Shown here: positions 9,946 to 32,125 of the stretch, piece by piece
Layout: each line of letters opens with the position of its first letter
How positions within the stretch are numbered: the stretch's first letter is position 1
Translations under genes and position numbers: made by a program
Assembly (NCBI GenBank): GCA_003221085.1
Contig: QHUD01000204.1
Location: forward strand, 768-35,925
Direction: 5' to 3'
DNA length: 35,158 nucleotides
Source of the DNA: Gemmatimonadota bacterium
GTDB taxonomy: Bacteria; Gemmatimonadota; Gemmatimonadetes; Gemmatimonadales; GWC2-71-9
Notes under the pieces: model-generated
Told to the model about the DNA's origin: nothing
What the model saw: the letters and a program-made list of their open reading frames with translations, nothing else
The model's database searches: none

Positions 9946-11037
9946 TCAGGTCTGAGCCTTCCGCCACAACCACACACCCGCCGCCCCGAATAGCACGTTC
10001 GGCACCCACGCCGCGAAGGCCGGCGGCAGGGCTCCGCCCGCACCCACCGCCTTCGACAGCTGGAACATCAGCAGGTCCACGAACGTCGTGGCGAGGCATA
10101 CCGCCACTCCCCACGCCATGCCGCTCCGCGGGGTGGAGATCGCGAGCGGCGCCCCGAACAGCGCGATGACGATACAGGCGAACGGCACCGAGAGCTTGAG
10201 CGCCCGCTCCACCCGCAGCTTTTTCGTGTCCGAGCCGGAGCGCGACAGCGCGTCGACGTAGCGCCCCAGCTCCGCGTAGCGCATCTCGTCCGGTGCCTTG
10301 GGCTCGGCCAGGAGGGCGGTGGGCGTCTCGCGCAGGCTCGTGATCCTGAGCGAGTCGAACGTGAAGGTCGTCTCCCGCCCGGGGCCGAGCAGGTAGCGCA
10401 CCGCGCCCTTGCCGAGCGTCCAGCCGCGCGCCTGCCGTGCCGTGTCGTACGTCGCGCGTTGCGCCGCGACCAGGATCGTCGGGTAGTCCTCCCCCGTGCC
10501 CCCGCGCTCCATGATCGGATCCCGCATGTCCGCCCCGCTCGTCCTGAGCTCCAGCGAGCGGATCGAGTACACCCAACCGCTGTCGGCGCGGTAGACGAAG
10601 GGCGAGAAGCGCGAGATCGTCGGGCGGGCGGTTTTCTCCCCCAAGAGCTCGGCGCGCCGGGCCGAGGCGCCGGGGGCGAGCTCGGTGAGCCCCAGATCGA
10701 GCAGCACCGCCGCGAGCGAGGCGACGAGCAGCGGCCGCACCACCCGATGGAACGAGATCCCCGAGGCCTTGGCCGCGGTCAGCTCCGAGTGGCGACCGAG
10801 CGCGCCGACCGTGAACACCACGGCGAACAGCACCGCCACCGGGAGCACCAGCGAGATCGTCTCCGGCAGATAGAACAGGTAAGAATACGCGACACGCGCC
10901 TTCGAAATGCCGCGGCCGAAATAGGCGTCGAACTTGTCGGCCAGATCGATCACCATCACCAGGAAGGGGAATCCCAACGCCGCCAGGAGACACACCTTGG
11001 TCCACTCGCGCAGGACGTAGCGATCGAGCGTGTTCAT
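9946..11037 (-). CDS. lptG: LptF/LptG family LPS export permease (YjgP/YjgQ), downstream paralog
   Basis: 363 aa starting MNTLDRYVLREWTKVCLLAALGFPFLVMVIDL..., with HSELTAAKASGISFHRVVRPLL. Its ATG overlaps the stop of the upstream paralog (ATGA). The rest of the 747-aa track ORF is off-frame read-through. Confidence 0.75.
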   Translation of the reverse strand: MNTLDRYVLREWTKVCLLAALGFPFLVMVIDLADKFDAYFGRGISKARVAYSYLFYLPETISLVLPVAVLFAVVFTVGALGRHSELTAAKASGISFHRVVRPLLVASLAAVLLDLGLTELAPGASARRAELLGEKTARPTISRFSPFVYRADSGWVYSIRSLELRTSGADMRDPIMERGGTGEDYPTILVAAQRATYDTARQARGWTLGKGAVRYLLGPGRETTFTFDSLRITSLRETPTALLAEPKAPDEMRYAELGRYVDALSRSGSDTKKLRVERALKLSVPFACIVIALFGAPLAISTPRSGMAWGVAVCLATTFVDLLMFQLSKAVGAGGALPPAFAAWVPNVLFGAAGVWLWRKAQT

Positions 11038-13627: not shown

Positions 13628-13704
13628 CGTGACCCGCAATCTTTCGGCGCTGCGTGCATCGAACGGATGACGTGAGCTGGCAAGGGCACCGTTAGTGTGT
13701 CCCG

Positions 13705-14106
13705 GTGGATGATCGCCGCGCCGCCCTCCTGCTCGCCCTCCTCGCCCTCGCGGGCGCAGCTGTGCGCTTGGCGCTCGCGCCCGTCACAGCCGCGGCGCCC
13801 GGTGACGTGCAGCTCGTGTCCGTCGATACGCCGCCCACCGGCCGGCTGTCTGTCACCGCGCGCAGCGCCGCCCGGCTCGCGCGGCCGCTGCTCCCGGGTG
13901 AGCGGGTCGACCTCGACCGCGCCGACGTGACCGAGATCACGCGTCTCCCACGAATCGGTCCCGCCTTTGCGCAGCGGATTGTCGCTTGGCGTGAGGAGCA
14001 CGGTGCGTTCGGCGGGCTGGCGCGGTTCGACAGTGTGCCCGGGGTGGGTCCGAAGCTGGTCGAGGCGCTCCGACCCTACGTGATGTTTTCGGGGGTGACG
14101 CCGTGA
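13705..14106 (+). CDS. comEA: ComEA family DNA-binding protein (membrane-anchored helix-hairpin-helix)
   Basis: 133 aa with a GTG start and an N-terminal anchor (LLLALLALAGAAV). The C-terminal tandem HhH reads ITRLPRIGPAFAQRIVAWREEHGAFGGLARFDSVPGVGPKLVEAL. Confidence 0.8.
   Translation: MDDRRAALLLALLALAGAAVRLALAPVTAAAPGDVQLVSVDTPPTGRLSVTARSAARLARPLLPGERVDLDRADVTEITRLPRIGPAFAQRIVAWREEHGAFGGLARFDSVPGVGPKLVEALRPYVMFSGVTP

Positions 14107-15930: not shown

Positions 15931-15934
<4 letters not shown>
14198..15934 (+). CDS. pilB: Type IV pilus assembly (extension) ATPase PilB, GspE family
   Basis: 578 aa. It has the T2SSE N-terminal domain, Walker A (GPTGSGKTTT), Asp box (AEDPVEY), Walker B (IIMVGEIRD), His box (GHLVLSTLHTND) and a tetracysteine motif (CSECK...CDTCSGSGYKGR). 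The start could instead be TTG 14219. Confidence 0.92.
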
Positions 15935-17026
<1,092 letters not shown>

Positions 17027-18261: not shown

Positions 18262-19449
18262 ATGATGGCCTCCGACGCCCCCGACGCCCCCAACCCCCGG
18301 GAGCCGAGGCCGGCACGTACGGGCACGTTGCGCCACGACACCGTCCCGATGCGCTTGTACCACGAAGCGAAACGACTCGGCGCCTGGGACCCGCGAAGCC
18401 TCGACCTGCGGCGGGACGTCGACGACTGGACGCGGTTCACCGTGGCCGAGCGCGATATGCTGCTCCGCCTCACCGTGCTGTTCCAGGCCGCGGAAGAGAG
18501 CATGACCCGCGATCTGCTGCCGCTCGTCATGGCCGTCGTGCGCGAAGACCATCTCGAGGAGCAGCTGTTCCTCACCACCTTCCTCGCCGACGAAGCGAAG
18601 CACACCGAGTTCTTCCGCCGCGTGCTGGACGAGATCTGCCGGCAGTCCGGGGACCTCCAGCGCTACCAGACGCCCAGCTTCCGGCGCCTCTTCGCCGAGC
18701 AGCTCCCCGACGCGATGCACCGGCTCCTGGCCGATCCGTCCCCCGCCGCCCAGGCCGAGGCGCTGGTGACTTATAGCCTAGTCGGCGAGGGCGTCCTGGG
18801 CGACGCGGGATACCACATCTTCTCGACCGCGCTCGCGCGCGGCGACTCGATGCCCGGGTTCCGCGAGGGTCTCAAGTACTCCCAGGCCGACGAGGATCGG
18901 CACATGGCCTATGGCCTGTTCCTCTTGTCCCGGCTCGTGGCCGAAGCCCCGGAGGTCTGGAGCGCGGTGAGCCGGCGCATGGAGGAGCTCTTGCCGCTCA
19001 CGCTCGGCATTGTGAGCGAGTTCTTCGAGGCCTATGAGCCCATGCCCTTCGGGCTCTCACTCGACGACACCGTTCAGGATGCGATCGCCCGGTTCGCCAA
19101 TCGGTGGGCGGCCCTGGAGGGAGCGCGCGAGCAAGGGCACGCGCTCGCGGGCGCCGTGGGCACCGAACGGACCATCCGCGACCTGCTCGGATGGGTCGGC
19201 GCAGAGCTGCAGCCGGCGCCGATCGAAGTGCGCCGGGAGGGCTCGAGTCCCGTCTACACGTTCCAGATCGGCCCGGCGGGCGCGGCGGCGCTGTTGATCA
19301 CGCAGGAGGTGCTCGCGCAGCATATGTCCACGGACGTGATCGCGGCGCTGCGCGCGCACCGCGTGCCAGAGCGCCTGCGGGCGGGCGGGCGGACACGGCT
19401 GACCTGCCTGAGCGCCCGCGGCAAGATCATCGTGCAGCCGCCGGAATGA
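18262..19449 (+). CDS. R2-like ligand-binding oxidase (ferritin-like diiron/Mn-Fe carboxylate protein, RNR-R2 superfamily) with an extra C-terminal region of about 100 aa
   Basis: 395 aa. Metal-ligand pattern: FQAAEES, LADEAKHTEFF (ExxH), SLVGEGVLGDAGYH and QADEDRHMAYG (ExxH). The gene starts 9 nt after the pilC stop. Confidence 0.65.
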   Translation: MMASDAPDAPNPREPRPARTGTLRHDTVPMRLYHEAKRLGAWDPRSLDLRRDVDDWTRFTVAERDMLLRLTVLFQAAEESMTRDLLPLVMAVVREDHLEEQLFLTTFLADEAKHTEFFRRVLDEICRQSGDLQRYQTPSFRRLFAEQLPDAMHRLLADPSPAAQAEALVTYSLVGEGVLGDAGYHIFSTALARGDSMPGFREGLKYSQADEDRHMAYGLFLLSRLVAEAPEVWSAVSRRMEELLPLTLGIVSEFFEAYEPMPFGLSLDDTVQDAIARFANRWAALEGAREQGHALAGAVGTERTIRDLLGWVGAELQPAPIEVRREGSSPVYTFQIGPAGAAALLITQEVLAQHMSTDVIAALRAHRVPERLRAGGRTRLTCLSARGKIIVQPPE

Positions 19450-19459: not shown

Positions 19460-20056
19460 CTAGGGACCGGACGCGGCGCCCCCGAGACCGGGCAGCTCGA
19501 GCCATTGCCGGGGGAAGCGCGGCAGGAACTTCACGTGGCGGTTCACCACCGCCTGCACCCGTCGCCACCAGCAAATGATCGGCTGGGCCGTTCGACCGAC
19601 GCTCACCACCGCGAACGGGATCGAGTCCGCCACCACCGTCCGCAGGTCCGGCTGGCTGAGGGAGCAGAGATCCTCCGGCGTCTTCAAGCCGAAACTCGAG
19701 TCCGGCCCGATCCAGGGGTGATTGTGCCACACAGCCAGCGTGGTGGCCGGCGGACACGGCAGCGGGATCACGGCGTCGACGCTCGAGTGCACGATGTCCG
19801 GCATCGCGAATTCCCGCACCAGCGCCGTATCTCCCGCTACCGTGCCCTGCAAGCACAGCACCACCTCCCGGTCGAGACCGGCCGCCAAGAGACTGAGGCG
19901 TCGGAGCAGGGACGGAGCGAGTACGAGGCGTTTCAGCGGTTGGGAGTTGAGGATCGCGGAGTCGGCCGGCGTCAATGCGGCCTGGCCTGGTGCCGGGCTC
20001 GCCACCGCGAGCCCTCCGACAGCCAGGTACACGAGGACTCGTAGCATCGGCTGCAT
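19460..20056 (-). CDS. Secreted hypothetical protein with a possible JAB/MPN-like metal motif
   Basis: The start is chosen at MQPMLRVLVYLAVGGLAVASPAPGQA (signal peptide). It contains WHNHPW...SLSQPD, which resembles the JAMM HxH...SxxD motif but with a long insert. It is convergent with the R2lox gene, with a 10-nt gap. Confidence 0.3.
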   Translation of the reverse strand: MQPMLRVLVYLAVGGLAVASPAPGQAALTPADSAILNSQPLKRLVLAPSLLRRLSLLAAGLDREVVLCLQGTVAGDTALVREFAMPDIVHSSVDAVIPLPCPPATTLAVWHNHPWIGPDSSFGLKTPEDLCSLSQPDLRTVVADSIPFAVVSVGRTAQPIICWWRRVQAVVNRHVKFLPRFPRQWLELPGLGGAASGP

Positions 20057-20263
20057 TCCGTAGGATAGCGCAGTGGGCGTTGGTGTGCCCGCTCTTGCAC
20101 TTTGCGACAGCGCTTCCAATACTGTACCTAAGGCGCCAGCCGCAGACCGTAAGGCACAAGTGGTCCAACAGCTTTAGCATCAATCGGTTACGCTCACCGA
20201 CGGGCACATGATCCTAGCGAGGGACGTGCTTACGGCTTACGACTTTCGAGTTGCGGCTGTCTC

Positions 20264-21925
20264 GTGACCTGGCTGAGGGGTGACCGGCGGGGGTCAGTCC
20301 TCCCGACTCCGCAGAGCCTGCTGCGGTCGGTGTACGCCGGGCGGATGTGCGTCGCCGGGGCGATCTACCTGACCGCGGCGCTCAAGTTCGCGGTCGTGGC
20401 GCCGCTCGACCTGCTCGTCACCTCGTTCGTGCTGGTCGCGGCGGTGGTGGTGACCATCGCCTCCTACTGGTACACCCACCTGTCGCGTCGCACGCCCGGC
20501 CGGACCTTCCTCTACGGGCAGGCGCTGTTCGACGTGGCGCTGATCACGACGGTCGTGCACATCACGGGTGGCCCGCAGAGCGACCTGACGCCCCTCTACG
20601 TCCCGCTGATCGCGGTGACGGCGGTGCTGATGCCGCCAGCGAGCACGGGGCTGATCACGGCGCTGGTGGGCATCGTCTACTTCGCCGACGTGTTCTTCGG
20701 GCACACCACGCCGATGTCGGCACAGGTGGGGTTGCAGCTGCTGGTGTTCGCTGCGGTAGCTGCCGTCACCGCCTACTTCGCGAGTCGGGTATCGGTGATG
20801 GGCGCGGAGCGGGAAGCGCTGGCGGGGGAGCTCCGGCAGGCGCGGCTGGAGGCGGCCGACGTGCTGCGGAGCGTCCCAACGGGGATCGTCACGGTGGACC
20901 AGGCGGGTCATCTGCTGTACTGCAATCCTGCGGCCGAGCAGATCCTCGGCTTCAAAGAACGCCAGTGGCGAGGGCGCCCGATCATGCCGGAGTTCGCGAA
21001 GATCGCTCCCGAGTTCTGGGCCGCGATCACCGCCACTGCGCGACGGGGCGTGCGGGCCATGCGGGTCGAGGCGACGGTACGGCGTTCCGATCGCACCTTC
21101 CCGATCGGCGTGACGACGACGACGCTGGACGTCGAGCCGGCGGGCGAGCCTCGGGTCACGGCGATCTTCACCGATATCTCGGACTCGAAGCGACTCGAGG
21201 AGCTCCATTTGCGCGCGGAGCGGCTCGAGGCCGTGGCGGAGCTGTCGTCGAGCCTGGCGCACGAGATCAAGAACCCGCTTGCGTCGATCCGCTCGTCGGT
21301 GGAGCAGCTGGGACGCGCGAAGCGCGTGAACGCCGACGAGAAGTTCTTGACGTCGCTGGTGGTGCGCGAGACCGACCGGCTGTCGCGTCTGCTCTCGGAG
21401 TTTCTCGATTTCTCCCGCGTGCGGGCCACGGAGTGCCGGCCGCTCGACCTCCACAGCGTGGCGGCCGCGGCGATCCGTCTCGTGCGCGAGCACCCGGACT
21501 GCCCCGAGGATGCTGTCATCGACCTGATGGGCGACGCCACGCCCATGGAGGGCGACGAGGACTTGTTGCATCGCGTGGTGTCGAACCTGGTGCTGAACGC
21601 CGTCCAGGCCACCGGGAAGGGCGCGCGCGTCGTGGTGCGGACTGGACGGCCCCAGCCCCACGACCTGCCCGGGGGGGCCGGCATCGAGAGCCCCGTATCC
21701 CTCGCCGTGAGCGACAATGGCCCGGGCATACCCGACAACCTGCGGGCCCGCCTGTTCGAGCCGTTCGTGACCGGTCGCGTGGGTGGCACCGGCCTCGGCC
21801 TCGCCATCGTACAGCGCGCCGTGGACGCGCACCGCGGGCTCGTGCTCGTGGACTCCCCGCCGGGGCAGGGCACGACGTTCACCGTCTACTTCCCCGCCGC
21901 GCGGCGGAAAGAGGAAGCGGCATGA
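20264..21925 (+). CDS. pilS: Membrane sensor histidine kinase (multi-TM N-terminus, PAS, HisKA, HATPase_c), PilS-like
   Basis: 553 aa with about 5-6 N-terminal TM helices and a PAS-like region (VPTGIVTVDQAGHLLYCNPAAEQILG). Kinase motifs: H-box (SLAHEIKNPLASIRSSVEQL), N-box (LVLNAVQAT), G1 (DNGPGIP) and G2 (GGTGLGLAIV). The stop overlaps the ATG of the NtrC-type regulator. Confidence 0.8.
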   Translation: MTWLRGDRRGSVLPTPQSLLRSVYAGRMCVAGAIYLTAALKFAVVAPLDLLVTSFVLVAAVVVTIASYWYTHLSRRTPGRTFLYGQALFDVALITTVVHITGGPQSDLTPLYVPLIAVTAVLMPPASTGLITALVGIVYFADVFFGHTTPMSAQVGLQLLVFAAVAAVTAYFASRVSVMGAEREALAGELRQARLEAADVLRSVPTGIVTVDQAGHLLYCNPAAEQILGFKERQWRGRPIMPEFAKIAPEFWAAITATARRGVRAMRVEATVRRSDRTFPIGVTTTTLDVEPAGEPRVTAIFTDISDSKRLEELHLRAERLEAVAELSSSLAHEIKNPLASIRSSVEQLGRAKRVNADEKFLTSLVVRETDRLSRLLSEFLDFSRVRATECRPLDLHSVAAAAIRLVREHPDCPEDAVIDLMGDATPMEGDEDLLHRVVSNLVLNAVQATGKGARVVVRTGRPQPHDLPGGAGIESPVSLAVSDNGPGIPDNLRARLFEPFVTGRVGGTGLGLAIVQRAVDAHRGLVLVDSPPGQGTTFTVYFPAARRKEEAA

Positions 21926-23298
21926 GCCAGCAGCCATCGATTCTGGTTGTCGACGACGAGATGGGGATCCTGGATGTGCTCCGGATCCTGTTGAAGGGGG
22001 AAGGCTTCGACGTCACGACCGCCCAGGGCGGGAAAGCCGGGCTCGAGGCGCTGAAGGGGAACCCGCCCGACATCGTGCTGACGGATATCAAGATGCCGGG
22101 CGTTTCGGGCACCGAGATCCTGGCTGCGGTGCGGGAGCAGGACCCCGAGACTCCCGTGATCCTCATGACGGCGCAGGCCTCGCTGCAGAGCGCGATCCAG
22201 GCGGTGAACCAGGGAGCGTTCTACTACATCCAGAAGCCGTTCTCGAACGACGACCTGGTCGCGATTTGCCGGCGCGCCGCGGAGCAGCGCCTCCTCAAGG
22301 CCGAGAACAAGCAGCTCAAGCAGGAGATCCGTCGGCGCGAGCGCTCCGGGCTCGTGAAGCCGCTGGGCAAGTCGCGTGCCTTCCAGGACGTGCTGAAGCT
22401 CGCCGAACAGGTGGCGCCCACCGAGAGCACGGTGCTCATCCAGGGAGAGTCGGGGACGGGGAAGGAAGTCATCGCGCGCTACATCCACGAGCTGTCAGCG
22501 CGCGCGGACGGTGGATTCTTTTCACTCAACTGTGGCGCGCTGCCGGAGAGCCTCCTCGAGTCGGAGCTGTTCGGCCACGTGAAGGGATCGTTCACGGGCG
22601 CGGTCCGGGACAAGCAGGGTCTGTTCGCGGCCGCCCGCGGGGGCACGTTCTTCCTGGACGAGATTGGTGAGATGTCGCCCGCGACCCAGGTGAAGCTGCT
22701 GCGGGTGCTGCAGGAGCGCGAGGCGATCCCCGTGGGCGGCACCGAGGCCATTCCGGTCGACGTTCGGGTCGTGGCCGCGACCAACCGTGACCTCGAGGAC
22801 GACATCAAGCGCGGTCGCTTCCGCACCGACCTGTACTACCGGCTGAATGTGATCGCCATCCATCTGCCGCCGCTGCGCGACCGGCGCGACGACATTCAGA
22901 TCCTGTGGGAGGAGTTCCTGAGTCGCATTGCCAGCGAGCGCGGCGAGCAGCCCAAGGCGCTCGCGCAGGAGGTGAAGGACGCCCTGCTCGCCTACGACTG
23001 GCCCGGCAACGTCCGCGAGCTCGAGAACGCCCTCGAGCGGGCGGTCGTGCTCAGCAAAGGGACGACGATCGATCTCGCGTCCCTGCCCGACAAGCTCACG
23101 GAGCGCCGCGCCGAGCCCCTCGTCGCCGAGCGGCCGCACGCGAACCCCACCCTCGACGTGATCGAGCGCGCCTACATCACCTGGGTGCTGCAGAGCGAGG
23201 GCGGCAACAAGACCCGCGCCGCCGAAGTGCTCGGCATCGATCCCTCTACGCTCTATCGCAAGCTGAGCCGTTACGAAGGCGATGTCCCCCCCGGGTGA
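21922..23298 (+). CDS. pilR: Sigma-54-dependent response regulator (REC, AAA+, Fis-HTH), PilR-like
   Basis: 458 aa starting MSQQPSILVVDDE. It has the receiver Asp (IVLTDIKMPG), Walker A (GESGTGKE), a GAFTGA-type loop (GSFTGA), the R-finger region and a C-terminal HTH (NKTRAAEVLGIDPSTLYRKL). Confidence 0.85.
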   Translation: MSQQPSILVVDDEMGILDVLRILLKGEGFDVTTAQGGKAGLEALKGNPPDIVLTDIKMPGVSGTEILAAVREQDPETPVILMTAQASLQSAIQAVNQGAFYYIQKPFSNDDLVAICRRAAEQRLLKAENKQLKQEIRRRERSGLVKPLGKSRAFQDVLKLAEQVAPTESTVLIQGESGTGKEVIARYIHELSARADGGFFSLNCGALPESLLESELFGHVKGSFTGAVRDKQGLFAAARGGTFFLDEIGEMSPATQVKLLRVLQEREAIPVGGTEAIPVDVRVVAATNRDLEDDIKRGRFRTDLYYRLNVIAIHLPPLRDRRDDIQILWEEFLSRIASERGEQPKALAQEVKDALLAYDWPGNVRELENALERAVVLSKGTTIDLASLPDKLTERRAEPLVAERPHANPTLDVIERAYITWVLQSEGGNKTRAAEVLGIDPSTLYRKLSRYEGDVPPG

Positions 23299-23998
23299 GG
23301 CGGCGGATCAAGTCGGGGCCGCGACCCTCGAGCGCATGGCGGCGGCCCCCCGCTACAATCGATGGATGTTCGACCGGCTGCGCCCTTGGGTGGGACGGCG
23401 GGTGCTCGAGATCGGGGCCGGGATCGGCAACATGTCCGCGTTCCTGGTCGATCGTGACCGCGTCGTGCTCACCGACACCGAGCCCTACTACCTCGGTCGG
23501 CTGCGCGAGCGGTTCGCGGGGCGGCCCCACGTCTCGGTTGCCGAGCTGCGGCTGCCCGCGGTGAGCCCGGGACTCGTCGCCGAGCGGCTCGACACCGTGG
23601 TCTGCCTGAACGTCCTGGAGCACATCGAGGACGATCGCGCGTCGCTGCGCGCCATGCACGACCTGCTCCAGCCCGGCGGCCGGCTCGCCCTCCTCGTGCC
23701 GTCGCTGCGCGCGCTATACGGCACCCTGGACGAGGCGCTGGGCCACTGCCGCCGCTACGTCCCCGACGAGCTGTCGGAGAAGCTCCGGGCCGCAGGCTTT
23801 CGCCTCCGGCATCTCGAGTATTTCAACCTCGCCGGCGTTCCGGGATGGTGGTTTGCGGGGCGCGTGCTGCGCCGCCGGCTCATTCCCTCGGGCGCGCTCC
23901 GGTGGTACGAAGCGCTGGTGCCGCTGTTCCGGCTGGAGCGGGTCCTTCCCTGGCGGATCGGCCAGTCGCTCATCGCCATCGGCGAGGTGCCGGCTTGA
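23282..23998 (+). CDS. Class I SAM-dependent methyltransferase
   Basis: 238 aa with motif I (VLEIGAGIGNMS), CLNVLEHIEDD and LLQPGGRLALLVP. ATG 23282 overlaps the pilR end by 17 nt; ATG 23336 is an alternative start. Confidence 0.75.
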   Translation: MSPPGEAADQVGAATLERMAAAPRYNRWMFDRLRPWVGRRVLEIGAGIGNMSAFLVDRDRVVLTDTEPYYLGRLRERFAGRPHVSVAELRLPAVSPGLVAERLDTVVCLNVLEHIEDDRASLRAMHDLLQPGGRLALLVPSLRALYGTLDEALGHCRRYVPDELSEKLRAAGFRLRHLEYFNLAGVPGWWFAGRVLRRRLIPSGALRWYEALVPLFRLERVLPWRIGQSLIAIGEVPA

Positions 23999-24720
23999 CG
24001 ACCGGAGACCTGCTGCTCTCGGTGGTCGTGCCCGCGTACAACGAGGCGACGACGATCGAAGCCGCCCTGCGGCAACTCGAGGGGGTCCCGCTGCGCCTCG
24101 AGGTGATCGCCGTGGACGACGCGTCGACCGACGGTACCGGCGCCATTCTCGACGGCCTGGCGGGCACGGGGCTCGTACACCAGGTGCTCCACCATCCGAC
24201 CAACCGCGGCAAAGGCGCGGCGCTCAAAACCGGGATCGCGGCGGCCACGGGCAGCGTGATCGTGGCGCAGGACGCCGATCTCGAGTACGATCCCGCCGAC
24301 CTCCCTCGCCTGCTCGCGCCCATCAAGGAAGGCCGGGCCGACGCGGTCTACGGCTCGCGCTTTCAGGGCGGCCCGCACCGCGTGCTGTTCTTCTGGCATG
24401 CGGTCGGCAACAATCTGCTCACGCTCGTCTCCAACATGTTCACGAATCTGAACCTGACGGACATGGAGACCTGCTACAAGCTGGTCAGGGCCGATCTCCT
24501 GAAACGGCTGCCGCTCACGTCGGAGCGGTTCGGGATCGAGGTGGAGCTCACGGCCCGGCTGGCGCAGGCGGGCGCGCGCGTCTGGGAGCTGCCCATCTCC
24601 TACAGCGGCCGGACCTACGCCGAAGGGAAGAAAATCACGTGGCGTGACGGGTTCGCGGCGTTCTTTCACATCCTCCGCTACAACCTGTTCCCGCCCCGCG
24701 GCAAATGGCGTGAGCGCTAG
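23995..24720 (+). CDS. GT2 family glycosyltransferase, polyprenol-phosphate-sugar-synthase-like (Dpm1/GtrB/ArnC-type)
   Basis: A TTG start overlaps the methyltransferase stop (TTGA). Motifs: LSVVVPAYNE, VIAVDDASTDGT, NRGKGAALKTG, AQDADLEYDP and GSRF. The product is 241 aa. Confidence 0.75.
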   Translation: MTTGDLLLSVVVPAYNEATTIEAALRQLEGVPLRLEVIAVDDASTDGTGAILDGLAGTGLVHQVLHHPTNRGKGAALKTGIAAATGSVIVAQDADLEYDPADLPRLLAPIKEGRADAVYGSRFQGGPHRVLFFWHAVGNNLLTLVSNMFTNLNLTDMETCYKLVRADLLKRLPLTSERFGIEVELTARLAQAGARVWELPISYSGRTYAEGKKITWRDGFAAFFHILRYNLFPPRGKWRER

Positions 24721-26227
24721 GCGCCTGTACGCCGCCGTCGCGCTCTGCGCCGTGGCCGTGCACGTCGGCGCGCTCTGGAATCACTTCGCGCTCGACGACA
24801 ACCAGATCGTCCAGTTCAACAAGCTGGTGCTCCAGTTCAGCGGCGTGTGGCGGGCGTTCGTGAGCCCCTACTGGCCCCCGGTCATCGGGGGCGGGATGTA
24901 TCGTCCCTTACCGCTCGCCTCGTACGCCCTCGACTGGCAGCTCGGGGGCGCGGCCTGGTGGTTTCACGCCGTGAACGTCGCCTGGCACGCCGGGGCGAGC
25001 GTGGCTGTCGCGTGGCTGGCGCGACAGTGGAGCGGCGAGCGGGCGGCGCTCGCCGCCGGGCTGCTGTTCGCGGTGCATCCGGTCCACGTCGAGGCCGTCG
25101 CCAACATCGTCGGCCGCGCCGAGCTGATGGCCTCGCTGTTCGCAATCCTTTGCGTCTACGCGGCGCTGGCGCACGATCGTCTGTGGTGGAGCGCCGCAGC
25201 GCTCACCGCCGGTCTCCTCAGTAAGGAGAATGCGGTCGTCGCGCCGGCGCTCATCGTCTGGGGGTGGATGATCGGGTTGGCCCCCCGCCCGTCCCGCGGA
25301 CGGATGGCCGCGTACGCCGGCGCATGGGTCGGCCTCGGCCTCGTGTACGTACTGGTCCGGTCGAGCGTCCTGGGCCACGAGCTGGTGGGCCGCCCGGCAC
25401 CCGTGTTCTTCGGCGCGTCTCCCGTCGCCGTCCGGTTGACGGCCGTGGCGGCGCTCGCGGATGTGGCGCGGCTCCTGGTCTTTCCGCTCACGTTGCGTGT
25501 CGATTATTCGCCCGCCGAGCGTACCCTCGTCACGACCCCGTTCGACTCCCGCTTCGCACTCGGGTTGCTGTGCGTCGTGGCCTGGGGTGCGCTCCTCTGG
25601 CTCGCCTGGCGGCGCGGGCGTCGGGTCGAGGCGTTCGGGCTGGGCTGGATTGGGATCGCCCTCTTTCCGGTGTCGAACCTCGTGGTCCCCGTGGGAGTCC
25701 TCCTGGCTGAGCGCGCGCTGTACATGCCGTCCGCCGGAGTCGCGTTGGCGGCCGGGACATGGCTCAAGGACCTCGAGACGCGCCGGCTGGCGCTGGTTCT
25801 CAGCGTGCTCGTCGTGGCCGGGGGCATCCGGAGCGCTCTCCGCGTGCCGGTGTGGCGGGACACCCAGGCGGTGATCGGCAGCGAGCTAGAAGACTCCCCC
25901 AACTCGTTCGCCGGTCCCGCCCACATGGTCGTGATGTATCTGACCGGGCATCAGCCGGCCAAGGCCCTCGAGGCATATCGCCGAGCCACCGAGCTCTATG
26001 ACGTGACGCTGCCGTGGCTGCAGATCCAGGGCGCTGAAGCGGCGTTCGCCACCGGGCGGCACGCCCTGGCGGACTCGCTGCTCGATCGAGTCGAGAGGGT
26101 CTGCCGGCCATGTGATTTCTACTACCGATACGAGTCCTCGGTCGCCCGCGCCCGCGGCTACCCCGCCGCCGCCGACTCGTTTGCCGCCCGCGTCGGACGG
26201 GCGCCGGGCCCCGTCCATGAGCCCTAG
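24710..26227 (+). CDS. TMTC/DUF1736-like GT-C fold membrane glycosyltransferase, paralog 1
   Basis: A GTG start overlaps the GT2 gene by 11 nt. The product has about 10 or more TM segments. The first loop carries ALWNHFALDDNQIV (acidic DD motif). FAVHPVHVEAVANIVGRAELMA matches my recollection of the DUF1736 signature. The C-terminal soluble part is TPR-like (AKALEAYRRATELYD). Confidence 0.6.
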   Translation: MSARRLYAAVALCAVAVHVGALWNHFALDDNQIVQFNKLVLQFSGVWRAFVSPYWPPVIGGGMYRPLPLASYALDWQLGGAAWWFHAVNVAWHAGASVAVAWLARQWSGERAALAAGLLFAVHPVHVEAVANIVGRAELMASLFAILCVYAALAHDRLWWSAAALTAGLLSKENAVVAPALIVWGWMIGLAPRPSRGRMAAYAGAWVGLGLVYVLVRSSVLGHELVGRPAPVFFGASPVAVRLTAVAALADVARLLVFPLTLRVDYSPAERTLVTTPFDSRFALGLLCVVAWGALLWLAWRRGRRVEAFGLGWIGIALFPVSNLVVPVGVLLAERALYMPSAGVALAAGTWLKDLETRRLALVLSVLVVAGGIRSALRVPVWRDTQAVIGSELEDSPNSFAGPAHMVVMYLTGHQPAKALEAYRRATELYDVTLPWLQIQGAEAAFATGRHALADSLLDRVERVCRPCDFYYRYESSVARARGYPAAADSFAARVGRAPGPVHEP

Positions 26228-27629
26228 ACGGATGTATCTCGCCGTCGGCTTGTGCGCCGTGGTGGTCTACCTCGGCGCGCTGTGGAACCAGTTCGCCCTG
26301 GATGATATCCCGATCATCGTGGTGAACCCGCTGGTCGCGCACCCGTCAGGGATCTGGCGGGCGTTCACGGCGCCCTACTGGGCGGCAGACTTCGGCGGTC
26401 ACATGTACCGGCCATTGGTCATCGCGGGGTTCGCCCTCGATGCGCTGGTGGACGAGACCGTCTGGTTCCACGCGGTGAACCTGCTATGGCACGCCGGGGC
26501 CGCGGTGGCGGTCGCGGCCCTGGCCCGGCGCTGGATGGATACGGCGGGCGGGCTCGTCGCCGGGTTGCTGTTCGCGGTGCACCCCGTGCACGTGGAGGCC
26601 GTCGCGAACGTCGTGGGTCGCGCGGAGCTCATGGCGACGCTGTTCACGCTCCTCGTCGTGTACGCCGCGCTCGGTCGCGCTCACCCAGGCTGGAGCGCAG
26701 CCGCCCTCGCCTTCGGCCTTCTATCCAAGGAGAACGCGGCGGTCGCACCCGCTTTGGTCGTCTGGGCGTGGATGCTCGGCCTCGACCGGCCCGACCGACG
26801 CCGCATGGTCTCGCTCGTCGTCGGGTGGGTGCTGGTGGGCGTCGCGTACACCGCCGTTCGCACGTTGGTACGCCAGCCGTTCGGCGGGTACATGAGCGTC
26901 GCGCCGATGTTCATCGGCCAGTCGTGGCTCTCGGTGCGCCTCACCGCGGTCGCCGCGCTCGCCGATGTGGCGCGTCTGCTCGTCTTCCCACTCACGCTGC
27001 GCGTGGACTATTCGCCCAACGAGCGCACCATCGTCACGTCGCCCCTCGACCTCCGCTTCGCCGCCGGCCTGTTCTGCGCGCTGGTGTGGGCTGCCTTGTT
27101 GACCGTCTCCTGGAGGCGCGGGAGGAAGCTCGAGGCGTTCGGTCTCGGTTGGATCGGCGTCGCCTTCCTGCCCGTGGCCAACCTCCTCTATCCCGCCGGC
27201 TTCTACGTAGCGGAGCGCACGCTCTATCTCCCGTCAGCGGGGCTGGTGCTCGCGGCGACCGCCGCCCTGTGCCGCTTGCCGCGGGACCGCGTGCGCCTGG
27301 TGGTGGCGATTCTCTGCATACTCGGCGGCGTCCGCACCGCGCTGCGGGTTCCGGTGTGGCGCAATGATAACGCGGTCACGCTGAGCATCATCGAAGACTC
27401 GCCGGACTCCTACGGGGGTCCGGTGCGCATGGCCGGTGTGTACCTGGCGGCACTCGCGCTGGGCGACTCGGGTGCGGCGGATTCGCTCCTTGCGCGGCTC
27501 GAGCGCTTCTGCTCCGGCGCGTGCGCCGCCGGCTACCTCCGTTACGAGGCCACGATGGCGCGTGCCCACGGCTATCCGGGGACCGCCGACTCGCTGCTGG
27601 CTCGCGCCGGCCGGCTGCAGGAGCCGTGA
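26217..27629 (+). CDS. TMTC/DUF1736-like GT-C fold membrane glycosyltransferase, paralog 2
   Basis: The ATG overlaps paralog 1 by 11 nt. The product is collinear with paralog 1 (ALWNQFALDDIPII, FAVHPVHVEAVANVVGRAELMA, LLVFPLTLRVDYSP) but has a shorter C-terminal domain. Confidence 0.6.
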   Translation: MSPRRMYLAVGLCAVVVYLGALWNQFALDDIPIIVVNPLVAHPSGIWRAFTAPYWAADFGGHMYRPLVIAGFALDALVDETVWFHAVNLLWHAGAAVAVAALARRWMDTAGGLVAGLLFAVHPVHVEAVANVVGRAELMATLFTLLVVYAALGRAHPGWSAAALAFGLLSKENAAVAPALVVWAWMLGLDRPDRRRMVSLVVGWVLVGVAYTAVRTLVRQPFGGYMSVAPMFIGQSWLSVRLTAVAALADVARLLVFPLTLRVDYSPNERTIVTSPLDLRFAAGLFCALVWAALLTVSWRRGRKLEAFGLGWIGVAFLPVANLLYPAGFYVAERTLYLPSAGLVLAATAALCRLPRDRVRLVVAILCILGGVRTALRVPVWRNDNAVTLSIIEDSPDSYGGPVRMAGVYLAALALGDSGAADSLLARLERFCSGACAAGYLRYEATMARAHGYPGTADSLLARAGRLQEP

Positions 27630-27771: not shown

Positions 27772-27787
27772 GGGCACGGGCTTTGCT
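27772..27787 (+). promoter_or_regulatory. Sigma-54 (-24/-12) promoter of pilA copy 1
   Basis: GGGCAC-gggct-TTGCT matches TGGCAC-N5-TTGCW with correct GG/GC spacing. It lies 92 nt upstream of ATG 27864. Confidence 0.7.
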
Positions 27788-27863: not shown

Positions 27864-28211
27864 ATGAACCGCAAGGGTTTCACACTCATTGAGCTGCTGA
27901 TCGTGGTGGTGATCATCGGCATTCTGGCCGCCATCGCGATCCCGAAGTTCGCCAACACGAAGGCGAAGGCGTACATCGCCTCCATGAAGTCGGACCTTCG
28001 GAACCTGGTGACCGCCGAAGAGGCGTATTTCGCCGACTCGGTCAAGTACAGCGCGACGCTGGGGACCATCGGTCTCGCGGCCGGTAACGGCGGCTGGAGC
28101 GTGACGGTCACGAACAACAACCTGACCACTCCGCTGGTGACGTGCGCGATCTTCATTAACACCGCGGCGTTGGCGCCGGCGGCCTCGGAAGGCGCGCCCG
28201 CCTGTCAGTAA
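27864..28211 (+). CDS. pilA: Type IVa major pilin PilA (intact copy)
   Basis: 115 aa. The class III signal is MNRKG/FTLIELLIVVVIIGILAAIAIPKF with Glu5. A C-terminal disulfide loop runs VTC...APAC-Q. Confidence 0.9.
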   Translation: MNRKGFTLIELLIVVVIIGILAAIAIPKFANTKAKAYIASMKSDLRNLVTAEEAYFADSVKYSATLGTIGLAAGNGGWSVTVTNNNLTTPLVTCAIFINTAALAPAASEGAPACQ

Positions 28212-28410: not shown

Positions 28411-28426
28411 GGGCACGAGGTTTGCT
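28411..28426 (+). promoter_or_regulatory. Sigma-54 (-24/-12) promoter of pilA copy 2
   Basis: GGGCAC-gaggt-TTGCT, 71 nt upstream of ATG 28482. Confidence 0.65.
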
Positions 28427-28481
28427 TCACGTATCACTTTGAAGAGTCCGCTGCCATCGACTCGAACGGGGGTAAAGTCAG

Positions 28482-28830
28482 ATGAACCGCAAGGGTTTCA
28501 CACTCATCGAGCTGCTGATCGTGGTGGTGATCATCGGCATTCTGGCCGCCATCGCGATCCCGAAGTTCGCCAACACGAAGGCGAAGGCGTACATCGCCTC
28601 CATGAAGTCGGACCTTCGGAACCTGGTGACCGCCGAAGAGGCGTATTTCGCCGACTCGGTCAAGTACAGCGCGACGACGTCGTGCACCACGCCGCCCACC
28701 GCGGGTAGGTGGCTGGAGCGTGACGGTCACGAACAACAACCTGACCACTCCGCTGGTGACGTGCGCGATCTTCATTAACACCGCGGCGTTGGCGCCGGCG
28801 ACCACGGAAGGCGCGCCCGCCTGTCAGTAA
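28482..28830 (+). pseudogene. pilA: pilA copy 2, frameshifted in the central variable patch (349 nt; zero-frame ORF ends at 28778)
   Basis: The first 194 nt are identical to copy 1 apart from one synonymous change. The 35-nt variable patch encodes TSCTTPPTAG. After ggt-a-ggt the conserved C-terminal module (GGWSVTVTNNNLTTPLVTCAIFINTAALAPATTEGAPACQ, stop 28828-28830) is in the +1 frame. Confidence 0.75.
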
Positions 28831-29030: not shown

Positions 29031-29046
29031 GGGCACGCGGTTTGCT
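29031..29046 (+). promoter_or_regulatory. Sigma-54 (-24/-12) promoter of pilA copy 3
   Basis: GGGCAC-gcggt-TTGCT, 72 nt upstream of ATG 29103. Confidence 0.65.
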
Positions 29047-29102
29047 TCATCCACCGGGTGGGAAGATCCCGCTCTAATCGACTTCAACTGGAGCAATGTC
29101 AG

Positions 29103-29442
29103 ATGAACCGCAAGGGTTTCACACTCATTGAGCTGCTGATCGTGGTGGTGATCATCGGCATTCTGGCCGCCATCGCGATCCCGAAGTTCGCCAACACGAA
29201 GGCGAAGGCGTACATCGCCTCCATGAAGTCGGACCTTCGGAACCTGGTGACCGCCGAAGAGGCGTATTTCGCCGACTCGGTCAAGTACAGCGCGACCCGT
29301 CGGCCTCGCGGCCGGTAACGGCGGCTGGAGCGTGACGGTCACGAACAACAACCTGACCACTCCGCTGGTGACGTGCGCGATCTTCATTAACACCGCGGCG
29401 TTGGCACCGGCGACCACGGAAGGCGCGCCCGCCTGTCAGTAA
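29103..29442 (+). pseudogene. pilA: pilA copy 3, 8-nt shorter variable patch causing a frameshift (340 nt; zero-frame ORF stops at 29318 after 71 codons)
   Basis: The first 194 nt are identical to copy 1. The 26-nt patch is copy-1-like but lacks 8 nt, giving ...SVKYSATRRPRGR-stop. The conserved 120-nt C-terminal module continues in the +1 frame to TAA 29440-29442. The track ORF start at 28926 is an upstream read-through artefact. Confidence 0.75.
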
Positions 29443-29472
29443 GCGGCGACCTTGCGGCGGCATCCGAACTGA

Positions 29473-29501
29473 GCGGCGGGGACTTCCCCGCCGCTTCGTT
29501 T
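29473..29501 (+). terminator. Rho-independent terminator after pilA copy 3
   Basis: GCGGCGGGG-actt-CCCCGCCGC followed by TTCGTTT. Confidence 0.7.
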
Positions 29502-29520: not shown

Positions 29521-30651
29521 ATGGCGGCCAAGCCCGCGCTCCGGACCGAGCTGCTCTTCTACCTGTCGTTCCTCGCCGCCGCCGCCCTGCTGATTGGGGT
29601 GGCGACCATGCTGGTCGCCACGAGTTTCGCTCCCGAGCGGACGTTCGTGCTGGTGATGCTCCTGGTCGCTCTGGAAGTGGCCGTGTTCCTCGTGTTCGGA
29701 CGCTACCTCGTAAACCGGCTGGTCCTGTGGCCTCTGGAGCGCGTGGTCGCCACCGCCGACGCGGTGGCGGACGGCGACCTGGCGCGGCGCGCGCCGGACG
29801 CGGAGACGCGCGACTTCGCCACCCTCGCGGAGCGGCTCAACCGCATGACCGATCACCTGCTCGATGCGCAAGGGCAGCTGGTGCGCTCGGAGAAGCTCGC
29901 CAGCATCGGCCGGCTGGCGGCCGGGATCGCCCATGAGGTAGGCAACCCGCTGGGCGCGATCGGAACCTACGTGGAAGTCCTGCGGCGCCGTGGCGCCGAC
30001 CCGGGGGTGGTCGCGGGCGTGACGCGCGAGCTCGAGCGCCTCGACCACATCGTGCGCGGGCTCCTGGACTACGCGCGACCCCAGGAGGAGCCGCTCGCGC
30101 CGCTCGATGCCGCTGCGGTGGCGCGGAGCGCCTACGGGCTGCTCGAGGCGCAGGGAGCGCTGAAGCCCGTGCGCCCGCGCCTCGAGGTCGCGGGCGACGT
30201 GCCACGGATGCTCGGCCGGGCGCACCTCCTGGAGCAGGCGATCGTCAACCTGGTACTGAACGCGGTCGATGCGGCGCCCCAGGGGGTCGTGATCCTCGGG
30301 GCGAGGGCGTGGGCGTACGAGTCGCGGCGCGCGTCGCCCAAGCGGGCGGACGATCCGCAGCGGAGTGCGTTTCCGCGCGGCGCCGAGCGTCGTCCGGGGC
30401 GCGCAGACTTCACTCCCGGGCAGCGGGGAGTGCTCCTCTACGTGGCGGATTCGGGCCCTGGCGTCCTCCCCGAGGACCGCGACACGATCTTCGAGCCGTT
30501 CTACACCACGAAGGCCCCGGGCCGGGGAACCGGATTGGGCCTCGCGATCGTCGCGCGGGCGGTGCACGACATGGGAGGGGTGGTGTGGGTGGACACGGCG
30601 CGGGAGGGAGGGGCGGCGTTTAAGATGTTCTTCCCGGAGGCGACCGCGTGA
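29521..30651 (+). CDS. Sensor histidine kinase (2 TM, HAMP, HisKA, HATPase_c)
   Basis: 376 aa with two N-terminal TM helices and a HAMP-like linker (LERVVATADAVADGDLARR...LAERLNRMTDHL). Kinase motifs: H-box (AAGIAHEVGNPLGAI), N-box (LVLNAVDAA), G1 (DSGPGV) and G2 (GRGTGLGLAIV). Confidence 0.85.
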   Translation: MAAKPALRTELLFYLSFLAAAALLIGVATMLVATSFAPERTFVLVMLLVALEVAVFLVFGRYLVNRLVLWPLERVVATADAVADGDLARRAPDAETRDFATLAERLNRMTDHLLDAQGQLVRSEKLASIGRLAAGIAHEVGNPLGAIGTYVEVLRRRGADPGVVAGVTRELERLDHIVRGLLDYARPQEEPLAPLDAAAVARSAYGLLEAQGALKPVRPRLEVAGDVPRMLGRAHLLEQAIVNLVLNAVDAAPQGVVILGARAWAYESRRASPKRADDPQRSAFPRGAERRPGRADFTPGQRGVLLYVADSGPGVLPEDRDTIFEPFYTTKAPGRGTGLGLAIVARAVHDMGGVVWVDTAREGGAAFKMFFPEATA

Positions 30652-30701
30652 TGCTTTCACGATCCCCACGGCGAGCCTCGAGGATCGACGAGCGCGCGAT
30701 C

Positions 30702-30739
30702 TACTCCGCATTCCGCACTCCACATTCCGCACTTCGCAC
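30702..30739. repeat. Direct array of CATTCCG-type heptamers abutting the start codon of the second NtrC-type regulator
   Basis: The array is tactccg cattccg cactcca cattccg cacttcg cac, followed directly by ATG. The 17-mer acattccgcacttcgca is shared exactly with the 13.6-kb array. Confidence 0.85.
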
Positions 30740-32125
30740 ATGACACGAGTCCTCGTCGTAGACGACGAACCCGGCCTGCGCCAGTCGCTCGGCCTATTGC
30801 TGGCGGACGCCGGTTACGACGTGGTGGCCGAGGGTAACGGGACGCGAGCGCTCGAGCGCGCGCTCGCCGAGTCGTTCGACCTGGTGCTGTGCGACGTGCG
30901 AATGCCAGAGATGGAGGGGCTGGCCTTCCTGCGCGCTTACAAAGGACGAGGTGGTACGGCCCTGGTCATCATGATGAGCGCCTACGGCGGCGAGGAAGCG
31001 GCGCTCGCGGCCATGAAGGAGGGCGCGTACGACTACATCCCCAAGCCGTTCCGGCCGGACGAGGTCGTCCTCACCCTTCGCAAGGCGGAGGAGCGGGAGC
31101 GGCTAGGGCGCACCATCGCGACACTAAGGGCACAGTTAGATAGCGCTCCTGCAGCCCGGGCGCTGATTGCCGAGAGCCCGGCCATGCGACAAGCCCTGGA
31201 GATCGTGGCGCGCGTGGCGGGTCATCCCACGACGGTACTGATCACGGGCGAGCGCGGCACCGGCAAGGAGGTCATCGCGCAAGCGATCCACCGAGCCAGT
31301 GCCCGCGCGGCGGGCCCGTTCGTGGCGGTGAACTGCGCCGCGATTCCCGACACGCTGCTCGAGTCGGAGCTGTTCGGCTACGTGAAGGGGGCGTTCACCG
31401 GGGCCGCCGCGGATCGTCCGGGGCTGTTCGAGCAAGCCGATGGCGGAACCCTCCTGCTCGACGAGGTGGGCGAGCTGCCGCTGGCGCTCCAGGCAAAGCT
31501 GCTGCGCGTGCTGCAGGAGAATGAGATCCGCCGGGTGGGAGACCAGAAGACGCGGCGCGTCGACGTGCGACTGCTCGCGGCGACTGCCAAGGACCTCGGC
31601 GCCGAGGCGGCGTCCGGCCGGTTTCGACACGATCTCCTGGACCGCTTGAACGTCGTGGCCATTCACCTGCGCCCGCTGTCCGAACGGCGCGCCGACATCG
31701 CGCCCCTGGCGGCGCATTTTGCTGCCCGGCTTGCCGGCCGGCTGGGCCGGCGCGTGGCCTTGAGCGAGGCGGCGCTCGCGTGGCTCGGCGAGCAGCCGTG
31801 GCCGGGCAACGTGCGCTCGCTCGAGCACGCCATCGAGCGGGCGGCGGTGCTGTCGGAAAAGGAGGTTCTGGAGCCGAAGGACTTTGGGCCCACCCCGGGC
31901 TTGCGCCCGGGGTCAGCACTGACCCCCGACACGCCACTGACCTCGGGCGCAAGCCCGGGGTTGCCGGAGACCGGGACCCTCAAGCACGCGGTCGAGCTGG
32001 CCGAGCGCCAGGCGATTACCGCAGCTCTCGGGGCGGCGGCAGGCAACCGCCGCGAGGCTGCCAAGCGGCTCGGCGTGAGCCTCCGGACGCTCTTCTACAA
32101 GATGGACCGATACGGCATCGAGTAG
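30740..32125 (+). CDS. Sigma-54-dependent response regulator (REC, AAA+, HTH), second NtrC-family activator
   Basis: 461 aa starting MTRVLVVDDEPG. It has the receiver Asp (LVLCDVRMPE), GERGTGKE, GAFTGA and the HTH (NRREAAKRLGVSLRTLFYKM). The Pro/Gly-rich linker (PTPGLRPGSALTPDTPLTSGASPGLPE) is encoded by the repeat at 31893-31960. Confidence 0.85.
   Translation: MTRVLVVDDEPGLRQSLGLLLADAGYDVVAEGNGTRALERALAESFDLVLCDVRMPEMEGLAFLRAYKGRGGTALVIMMSAYGGEEAALAAMKEGAYDYIPKPFRPDEVVLTLRKAEERERLGRTIATLRAQLDSAPAARALIAESPAMRQALEIVARVAGHPTTVLITGERGTGKEVIAQAIHRASARAAGPFVAVNCAAIPDTLLESELFGYVKGAFTGAAADRPGLFEQADGGTLLLDEVGELPLALQAKLLRVLQENEIRRVGDQKTRRVDVRLLAATAKDLGAEAASGRFRHDLLDRLNVVAIHLRPLSERRADIAPLAAHFAARLAGRLGRRVALSEAALAWLGEQPWPGNVRSLEHAIERAAVLSEKEVLEPKDFGPTPGLRPGSALTPDTPLTSGASPGLPETGTLKHAVELAERQAITAALGAAAGNRREAAKRLGVSLRTLFYKMDRYGIE
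31893..31960. repeat. GC-rich double-hairpin element (24-nt unit, 20-nt spacer, inverted 24-nt unit) inside the regulator coding sequence
   Basis: CCCCGGGCttgcGCCCGGGGtcag, then cactgacccccgacacgcca, then ctgaCCtCGGGCgcaaGCCCGGGG. The unit is identical to 4256-4279. Confidence 0.85.

Follow-up and report, generated by a model that had tools for sequence, protein, structure and literature searches.

The present study concerns a block of four genes in a stretch of 35,158 nt from the Gemmatimonadota (Gemmatimonadales) contig QHUD01000204.1 (hereafter the window; 68% GC), the open reading frames (ORFs) of which were scanned against Pfam. The block lies between pilR and a series of type IV pilin genes and encodes an S-adenosylmethionine (SAM) methyltransferase (MT), a family 2 glycosyltransferase (GT2) and two paralogous membrane proteins, GT-C1 and GT-C2, that resemble the TMTC protein O-mannosyltransferases of animals. 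Patterns of synteny and homology are consistent with a pilin-dedicated extracytoplasmic O-glycosylation module, a reading to which we would give a probability of about 0.6.

Gene order and overlaps around the block

Third-position GC across the window picked out a plus-strand string of genes in the order ComEA-like helix-hairpin-helix gene, pilB, pilT, pilC, a gene resembling the ribonucleotide reductase small chain, pilS, pilR and the four-gene block, followed downstream by three tandem pilin cassettes, a second sensor kinase/sigma-54 regulator pair and minor pilin genes. The nearest proteins and loci were all from Gemmatimonadota metagenome-assembled genomes (MAGs). pilS and pilR overlap by 4 nt, and when gene ends were recomputed the overlaps of 17, 4, 11 and 11 nt claimed for the block in an earlier reading made from the letters alone (the sequence-only reading) proved exact: 17 nt between pilR and the MT gene (MT ATG at 23282, pilR stop at 23298), 4 nt between the MT and GT2 genes (GT2 TTG at 23995, MT stop at 23998), 11 nt between GT2 and GT-C1 (GT-C1 GTG at 24710, GT2 stop at 24720) and 11 nt between GT-C1 and GT-C2 (GT-C2 ATG at 26217, GT-C1 stop at 26227), with the TTG and GTG starts inferred through alignment of homologues. 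Identical overlaps occur in a relative with 87% identity (L081), and the best reading is therefore that all six genes, pilS through GT-C2, are coupled in translation as a single unit. In L081 the pilR orthologue carries Response_reg, Sigma54_activat and HTH_8 domains. The idea that the block consists of chance ORFs in DNA of 68% GC was ruled out by third-position GC of 0.85–0.89 in its reading frames and by the thousands of homologues found for its proteins.

Relatives, fold and motifs of the block proteins

The GT2 protein, which has no transmembrane (TM) helix, contains the motifs VVVPAYNE, DDASTDGT and DADLEYDP on which its assignment to the Dpm1/GtrB/ArnC type had originally been based, and that assignment was borne out by profile and structure relatives. 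In addition to PF00535 (Table 1), it matched the NCBIfam models AglJ (1e-30), PpgS (8e-19) and a haloarchaeal Dol-P-hexose transferase (2e-18), and weakly PgfS (3e-12), and its best PDB relatives were the Pyrococcus Dol-P-Man synthase 5mlz (9e-14, residues 7–228), then ArnC and GtrB. Every best family or structure relative is a polyprenyl-phosphate glycosyltransferase. Judged from its sequence the protein is clearly of the polyprenyl-phosphate sugar synthase type, the specific sugar being something that the sequence does not let one read, and mannose would be a guess. The MT matched Methyltransf_12, Methyltransf_23, Methyltransf_11 and Methyltransf_25 in Pfam, is without a TM segment and found only generic matches in the PDB; against PADLOC it gave only a generic methyltransferase-domain match (mad2, 7e-12), and GT2, GT-C1 and GT-C2 gave no match there. 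We class it as a generic SAM enzyme of class I and as an accessory member of the block, a core role having been ruled out by the presence of an orthologue in just 10/52 related loci.

GT-C1 and GT-C2 are 56% identical, GT-C2 being shorter by 32 aa within the C-terminal domain. Neither gave anything above threshold in Pfam or NCBIfam, with no PF02366, PF13231 (PMT_2) or MIR match in Pfam and no Pfam tetratricopeptide repeat (TPR) match at the C-terminus, and a profile of the 26-homologue GT-C alignment run against PDB sequences returned a single spurious match (E = 0.5), so that comparison of folds was needed. Structure prediction, which the sequence-only reading had put forward as a check, gave an AlphaFold model of GT-C1 with a predicted local distance difference test score (pLDDT) of 81 and a predicted TM-score (pTM) of 0.81. 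Foldseek matched this model to AglB, STT3, PglB, ArnT, ALG9, ALG12 and AftA at probability 1.0, with TM-scores of about 0.4; only GT-C enzymes reached that probability, and TPR proteins were matched as well, by the C-terminal ~120 residues. The model is a confident one, and both paralogues are predicted to be enzymes of the GT-C fold.

For TMTC proteins, seven ligand-binding motifs (M1–M7) have been defined (PMC7801869), and these were taken as the reference, with invariance judged in the 26 homologues. Six of the seven are found in both GT-C1 and GT-C2, in the same order and with spacing similar to that of TMTC1 (Table 1), and the HPVHVEAVANxVGRAELM block and FALDD motif quoted in the sequence-only reading are both present. 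Because both paralogues keep all catalytic motifs, both are predicted to be active. A sub-threshold match to DUF1736 (PF08409) fell at the same site in 24 of the 26 homologues, and PF13231 was matched in 4 of them (best 7.7e-6). An exhaustive profile search placed 75,281 representative clusters in the family. Its distant members (E ~1e-66 to 1e-97) are proteins of 550–660 aa with real TPR arrays, and P0256 (7e-66) passes the DUF1736 cut-off with 35.4 bits. GT-C1 and GT-C2 belong to a short-tailed branch of this bacterial TMTC-like superfamily and are not canonical by Pfam or TPR criteria. The C-terminal domain also carries an invariant cysteine pair (VCRPCDF in GT-C1, residues 465–468, CxxC-like; FCSGAC in GT-C2), which would be consistent with a disulfide and with a periplasmic location of the domain.

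An alternative explanation could be that the GT-C enzymes modify a non-protein part of the envelope, such as lipid A or lipopolysaccharide, exopolysaccharide or peptidoglycan, in the manner of ArnC/ArnT or GtrB/GtrC, and thereby adapt the surface to pilus function. Foldseek did match ArnT, the relatives of GT2 include ArnC and GtrB, there is a weak NCBIfam match to “cell surface glycopolymer formation” (E = 6.5e-6, far below cut-off), and LptF/G genes lie ~12 kb upstream. This would not account for a motif set that is that of the TMTC protein O-mannosyltransferases, nor for a C-terminal domain of TPR type, which is typical of protein-recognising GT-C enzymes; there are no arn, O-antigen or exopolysaccharide genes in the window, and the block adjoins pilA, not polysaccharide loci. 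We regard this explanation as distinctly improbable, and its most specific form, an ArnT-like modification of lipid A, was judged unlikely from motifs and context.

Related loci and the pilin genes

Eighty related Gemmatimonadota loci were mapped with the window proteins and a prepilin motif. A prepilin gene was present within 5 kb of the GT-C gene in 60/80, and the possibility, raised when the module was first proposed, that most relatives carry the block at a distance from pil genes fails on this count. Ten contigs end no more than 1.5 kb from the GT-C gene and are uninformative for pilin adjacency, and ten loci have no prepilin gene within 5 kb; among these last, L017 has its pilins 6 kb off, behind inserted further glycosylation genes, and L015 and L033 run straight on into the downstream kinase. 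Counted by gene, 79/116 GT-C genes have a pilin gene at most 4.5 kb downstream on the same strand, and these 79 span more than 10 subclusters less than 42% identical, including Longimicrobiales; in L046, L055 and L059 pilin genes stand beside the GT-C genes on the opposite strand, 300–400 nt off. The distance from the end of the last GT-C gene to the major pilin gene is 230–800 nt in most loci, over many divergent subfamilies, and in the window, where the GT-C genes are upstream, GT-C2 ends 234 nt from pilA. A sigma-54 regulator was found upstream in 33 of 42 informative loci, and the second kinase/regulator pair is a conserved downstream border, positioned 3′ of pilA in most related loci. Of five distant TPR-bearing homologues sampled, three were pilin-adjacent and two were not, and one of the three has the entire arrangement again, running from the regulator through GT2, two GT-C/TPR genes and the pilin to the kinase. 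The order pilR, GT2, GT-C, pilA is seen in the Gemmatimonas MAGs L070, L073, L079 and L080 as well. The co-occurrence of an MT–GT2–TMTC block with pilA in relatives, as originally suggested, was found for the GT-C genes and for GT2 (orthologue in 38/52 related loci) and not for the MT. At one locus without a recognisable pilin gene (L011), a membrane protein judged by eye to be prepilin-peptidase-like (A24/CpaA-type; 504-1097, minus strand) adjoins a 54%-identical GT-C.

The contents of the pilR–pilA interval in relatives range from one to three TMTC-like GT-C genes and from one to two lipid-sugar synthase genes, and the extras comprise PMT_2/DUF2079-like GT-C enzymes with a YDDG motif, a second methyltransferase, a GT4 and a GtrB-like GT2 of 385 aa with C-terminal TM helices. 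With its varying extra glycosylation genes the interval behaves as a variable glyco-island. It is possible that GT2 and the GT-C enzymes glycosylate other extracytoplasmic proteins and are placed with pilSR only through co-regulation with piliation, either as a general O-glycosylation system or with minor pilins, PilQ or PilY1-like proteins as targets. TMTC-like paralogues do occur outside pil loci in the phylum, also in PMT-type gene clusters, the window has minor pilin genes further downstream, and the Pgf system of S. mutans, though encoded beside cnm, also modifies WapA. However, co-regulation need not produce a spacing as tight as 230–800 nt between the last GT-C gene and the major pilin gene, and the content of the island varies together with the pilin-bearing locus. 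We consider this explanation unlikely, if the most serious of those weighed here, and prefer that of a module dedicated to the pilin.

A sigma-54-type element, GGCACG-N4-TTGC, precedes each of the three pilin cassettes, the whole window containing five matches to it vs 0.16 expected; the other two are on the minus strand, one at 22367-22380, antisense inside pilR, and one at 1406-1419, inside the 5′ part of an ORF for an extracytoplasmic function (ECF)-type sigma factor (1344-1979, minus strand). Cassette 1 matched N_methyl (1.6e-9) and, with its N-terminal part only, typeIV_PilA_Myxo (3e-18). The cassettes have identical 5′ (~195 nt) and 3′ (~130 nt) parts, their sole difference being a patch after ...KYSAT, and all three resemble deletions, each a different one, of a longer variable patch of the type seen in L019. 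Contigs that end inside the first pilin gene (L001, L008, L009, L044, L045, L060, L066, L070, L071, L076 and L079) suggest that repeated cassettes are widespread in the phylum and interrupt the assembly of short reads. Over mature residues 54–80, Ser and Thr make up 33% of major pilins vs 19% of minor pilins of the same loci, which as evidence for an acceptor is suggestive only. The same pilin loop is glycosylated in Thermus PilA4/PilA5 and in Neisseria, and within it lie Thr64 and Thr66, the main D-arabinofuranose sites of the Pa5196 pilin.

Several observations weigh against a pilin-dedicated module. DUF1736 scored 16.0 bits in GT-C1 and 17.0 bits in GT-C2 (E = 0.006) against a gathering cut-off of 27, and the GT-C tail is a helical TPR-like domain of ~110–125 aa and not a long TPR array, so that the TMTC/DUF1736 likeness first claimed is borne out by the GT-C fold and by six of seven motifs and not by the Pfam score or the tail. 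The family is huge and includes paralogues without pil neighbours, among them P0168 and P0256; a separate paralogue with a fuller TPR tail, placed between guaA and dusB, has a conserved housekeeping context (hisS, proS ... guaA, then dusB) with no pil genes nearby, and one such copy shares its MAG with a pil-linked copy. Neither a search of the window for small ORFs with several TM segments nor Pfam scans of its ORFs turned up a flippase; an unannotated ORF of 219 aa (19460-20119, minus strand) contains just one hydrophobic stretch (residues ~39–62), which may be read as a signal peptide. Cassettes 2 and 3, with 349 and 340 nt vs 348 nt in cassette 1, are consequently no longer in frame with the conserved C-terminal half: cassette 2, the carrier of TSCTTPPTAG, is +1 out of frame past the variable patch, and in cassette 3 the patch is 8 nt shorter. 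Cassette 1 has itself lost the TTxCTTPPTAG Ser/Thr patch. The earlier view that the pilin copies differ at Ser/Thr segments was right as to position, exactly after ...KYSAT, and wrong in relying on a frameshifted cassette, and because of the frameshift the Ser/Thr patch in cassette 2 cannot serve for sugar attachment. An abundance of Ser and Thr in pilins is in any case not specific evidence. Lastly, pilT (15931-17026) is disrupted, a change of frame separating its N-terminal 165 residues from the remainder, and lacks ~66 nt around the region after GHIITV by comparison with the intact 386-aa PilT of L081. These defects are either real decay, silent copies in the case of the cassettes, or assembly errors in repeats, and the pilus system of this genome may be decaying or mis-assembled.

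It could be argued from the pilT lesion and from the different deletions in the off-length cassettes 2 and 3 that the module is a relic here, in a pilus system that is being lost, or that strain variants were assembled into a chimera in this region. Yet the MT, GT2 and both GT-C genes are intact with all invariant residues kept, pilB, pilC, pilS, pilR and cassette 1 are intact too, and near-identical cassettes in tandem are easily misassembled, with the contigs of many relatives breaking at that point. We think a relic or a chimera very improbable and still hold a pilin-dedicated module to be the more probable reading.

Two other genes of the string are recorded here as side observations. The ribonucleotide-reductase-small-chain-like gene (18262-19449; PF00268, 4e-16), sits between pilC and pilS; L003 and L009 have it too, and L081 does not. 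The ComEA-like helix-hairpin-helix gene (13696-14106; HHH_3, 7e-16) lies directly 5′ of pilB and is kept in L081, a position that hints at a pilus serving DNA uptake.

Table 1. Features of the window and of related loci. Nucleotide positions are those of the window unless a related locus is named; positions of TMTC motifs are residue numbers of GT-C1.
Feature	Position	Strand	Remarks
pilS-like sensor kinase	20264..21925	+	6TM_PilS, PAS, HisKA, HATPase_c; first gene of the overlapping string; start codon uncertain
pilR-like sigma-54 response regulator	21922..23298	+	Translation begins MSQQPSILVVDDE
SAM methyltransferase (MT)	23282..23998	+	Class I, 238 aa, soluble; Methyltransf_12 1e-15, Methyltransf_23 3e-14
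GT2	23995..24720	+	Polyprenyl-phosphate sugar synthase type, 241 aa; PF00535 3e-34
GT-C1	24710..26227	+	TMTC-like, 505 aa, short C-terminal TPR-like domain; AlphaFold model, Foldseek, motifs
GT-C2	26217..27629	+	Paralogue of GT-C1, 470 aa; BLASTP 2e-166, six motifs
Sigma-54-type element GGCACG-N4-TTGC	27773..27786	+	5′ of cassette 1
pilA cassette 1	27864..28211	+	115 aa, 348 nt in frame; only intact major prepilin
Sigma-54 element and cassette 2	28412..28830	+	ATG 28482; 349 nt to conserved TAA
Sigma-54 element and cassette 3	29032..29442	+	ATG 29103; 340 nt to conserved TAA
Terminator-like hairpin	29471..29496	+	3′ of last cassette; 11-pair stem, 9 GC pairs
Second sensor kinase	29521-30651	+	HAMP/HisKA/HATPase_c
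Second sigma-54 regulator	ORF to 32125	+	Start probably ~30650-30740; Response_reg/Sigma54_activat/HTH_8
TMTC motif M1, DD	D29-D30 (FALDD)		First extracytoplasmic loop; invariant; both paralogues
TMTC motif M2, ..YRP	64-66		Invariant
TMTC motif M3, RxD	R136-x-E138		Invariant
TMTC motif M4, KE	K172-E173		Invariant
TMTC motif M5, DW	D265-Y266		Y replacing W; invariant
TMTC motif M6, PxxP (TM9)	P320, P327		Conserved but Px6P; not matched
TMTC motif M7, ERxxY	E334R335xxY338		Invariant
Housekeeping paralogue	L048:9884-11413
Housekeeping paralogue	L053:~10000-11506		Match from 10001; ORF call from 9464 is an over-extension
Housekeeping paralogue	L088:5001-6872
Extra genes of pilR–pilA interval	L017:11362-17153; L006:5310-6800; L013:8482-10011; L044:5960-7603; L064:7441-9171

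Proposed route and comparison with known systems

From these genes we infer a donor, an acceptor, modified sites and a biological role as follows. At the cytoplasmic face the soluble GT2 would take a monosaccharide, a hexose or an N-acetylhexosamine, from a common nucleotide sugar and attach it to polyprenyl phosphate; the MT, where present, may methylate the sugar or its lipid-linked form. Flipping of the lipid-linked sugar would then fall to a protein whose gene lies elsewhere, or possibly to a GT-C enzyme itself. In the periplasm the two TMTC-like enzymes would glycosylate Ser or Thr residues of the membrane-anchored pilin before assembly, probably in the loop between its N-terminal helix and beta-sheet, and the paralogues may act sequentially (first sugar, then extension), at different sites or as a heterodimer. 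The enzymes would be translated from the pilS–pilR message, and the sigma-54 promoters of the cassettes are presumably under PilR control, an arrangement by which expression of enzyme and substrate would be co-ordinated. A likely benefit would be a pilus surface that is masked and diversified, as a defence against pilus-specific phages for instance. Taken further, the major pilin may be the first substrate of the bacterial TMTC-like family, with the glyco-island and the tandem cassettes together forming a system for diversifying the pilus surface and the paralogues building a (perhaps methylated) O-glycan as a heterodimer or in sequence; we offer this joint interpretation tentatively, at somewhat less than even odds.

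The closest precedent, as judged from its published description, is TfpW, the D-arabinofuranosyltransferase of the group IV pilin of Pseudomonas aeruginosa Pa5196/PA7, a protein of 646 aa with 11 predicted TM helices. The sequence-only reading had set TfpW apart as one of the other enzymes employed in pilin glycosylation, which was mistaken, as TfpW works by the same logic. It is a GT-C enzyme with a DDx in the first periplasmic loop, essential in TfpW, and a C-terminal periplasmic TPR domain; its best structural template is ArnT, also among the Foldseek matches here; it is encoded beside pilA; its donor is a polyprenyl-phosphate monosaccharide, as proposed here; and it modifies Ser/Thr in the pilin alpha-beta loop, the loop that would be the target here. 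Since TfpW shares this logic, it was an overstatement to call the present combination undescribed, although nothing was found in the literature linking TMTC, DUF1736 or PMT-type enzymes with pilins, nor any description of this Gemmatimonadota locus, in searches whose coverage leaves out most subscription journals so that absence is not proof. Differences from TfpW are also clear. Its donor is made via DPPR synthase and DprE1/DprE2, genes for none of which were found in the window, as opposed to a Dpm1/AglJ-like GT2; its proline-rich motif YX6PFX7P (periplasmic loop 4) occurs in neither paralogue and in none of the 26 aligned homologues; and its gene is downstream of pilA, whereas here the genes are upstream, in the pilSR operon, with two paralogues in place of one enzyme and only a short TPR tail.

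The animal TMTC1–4 enzymes (CAZy family GT105) act with DPM1 in O-mannosylation of cadherins and protocadherins. They share with the window proteins the order of DD, YRP, Rx(D/E), KE, D(W/Y) and ERxxY, the HPxHxE-AV block, the DUF1736 signal, the GT-C plus TPR architecture and a lipid-phosphate-sugar donor from a soluble Dpm1-like GT2. In contrast to them, the proteins described here are bacterial, fall below the Pfam cut-off, leave PxxP unmatched and have a TPR-like tail of ~110 aa in place of 8–10 TPRs. In the Pgf system of S. mutans, pgfS-pgfM1-pgfE-pgfM2 are co-transcribed beside cnm, the gene of a modified surface protein, and loss of the second membrane protein yields an intermediate product, which suggests stepwise addition. 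The likeness lies in a GT-A/GT2 enzyme and two paralogous PMT_2-type membrane proteins next to a substrate gene; Pgf differs in being Gram-positive, in having LPXTG adhesins as substrates and an epimerase, in lacking a TPR or DUF1736 signal, and in modifying also a second protein encoded elsewhere.

In actinobacterial Ppm1/Pmt and in the fungal and animal PMT systems (GT39), a GT2 makes polyprenyl-phosphate mannose and a GT-C enzyme O-glycosylates Ser/Thr of exported proteins. Sec substrates are modified broadly by these systems, which are not encoded beside any one of them, and PF02366 and MIR, as noted, were not found here. The three-component systems GtrA/GtrB/GtrC, ArnC/ArnEF/ArnT and GT136 pentofuranose likewise join a polyprenyl-phosphate sugar synthase with an extracytoplasmic GT-C enzyme, but their targets are glycans or lipid A and they have a dedicated flippase (GtrA, SMR or MATE) not found in this locus. 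PilO/TfpO and PglL resemble the proposed module in glycosylating type IV pilins in the periplasm, with tfpO adjoining pilA, but are unrelated enzymes of Wzy_C type that transfer preassembled undecaprenyl-diphosphate-linked oligosaccharides en bloc, and the block proteins had no Pfam or NCBIfam match to a Wzy_C or O-antigen ligase-like domain.

If the proposed module is correct it would represent a third enzymatic route to pilin glycosylation, beside the Wzy_C-type oligosaccharyltransferases and TfpW, in which a Dpm1-like lipid-sugar synthase is combined with TMTC-type transferases and which is conserved across a soil phylum. Pilin glycosylation alters pilus assembly, adhesion and phage susceptibility, as has been seen for TfpO and TfpW in Pseudomonas. 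For annotation, neither “hypothetical” nor an unqualified “protein O-mannosyl-transferase” is suitable for the GT-C genes of the block. No assigned substrate was found in the literature for the bacterial TMTC-like family, with its ~75,000 representative clusters, and the pilin would be the first candidate substrate for this large DUF1736/TMTC-like family, a small and easily purified acceptor encoded next door. Human TMTC1–4 are linked to brain malformation and hard to study, and the module, if real, would offer a simple bacterial model for them and would point to a prokaryotic, substrate-dedicated origin of the animal TMTC O-mannosylation pathway.

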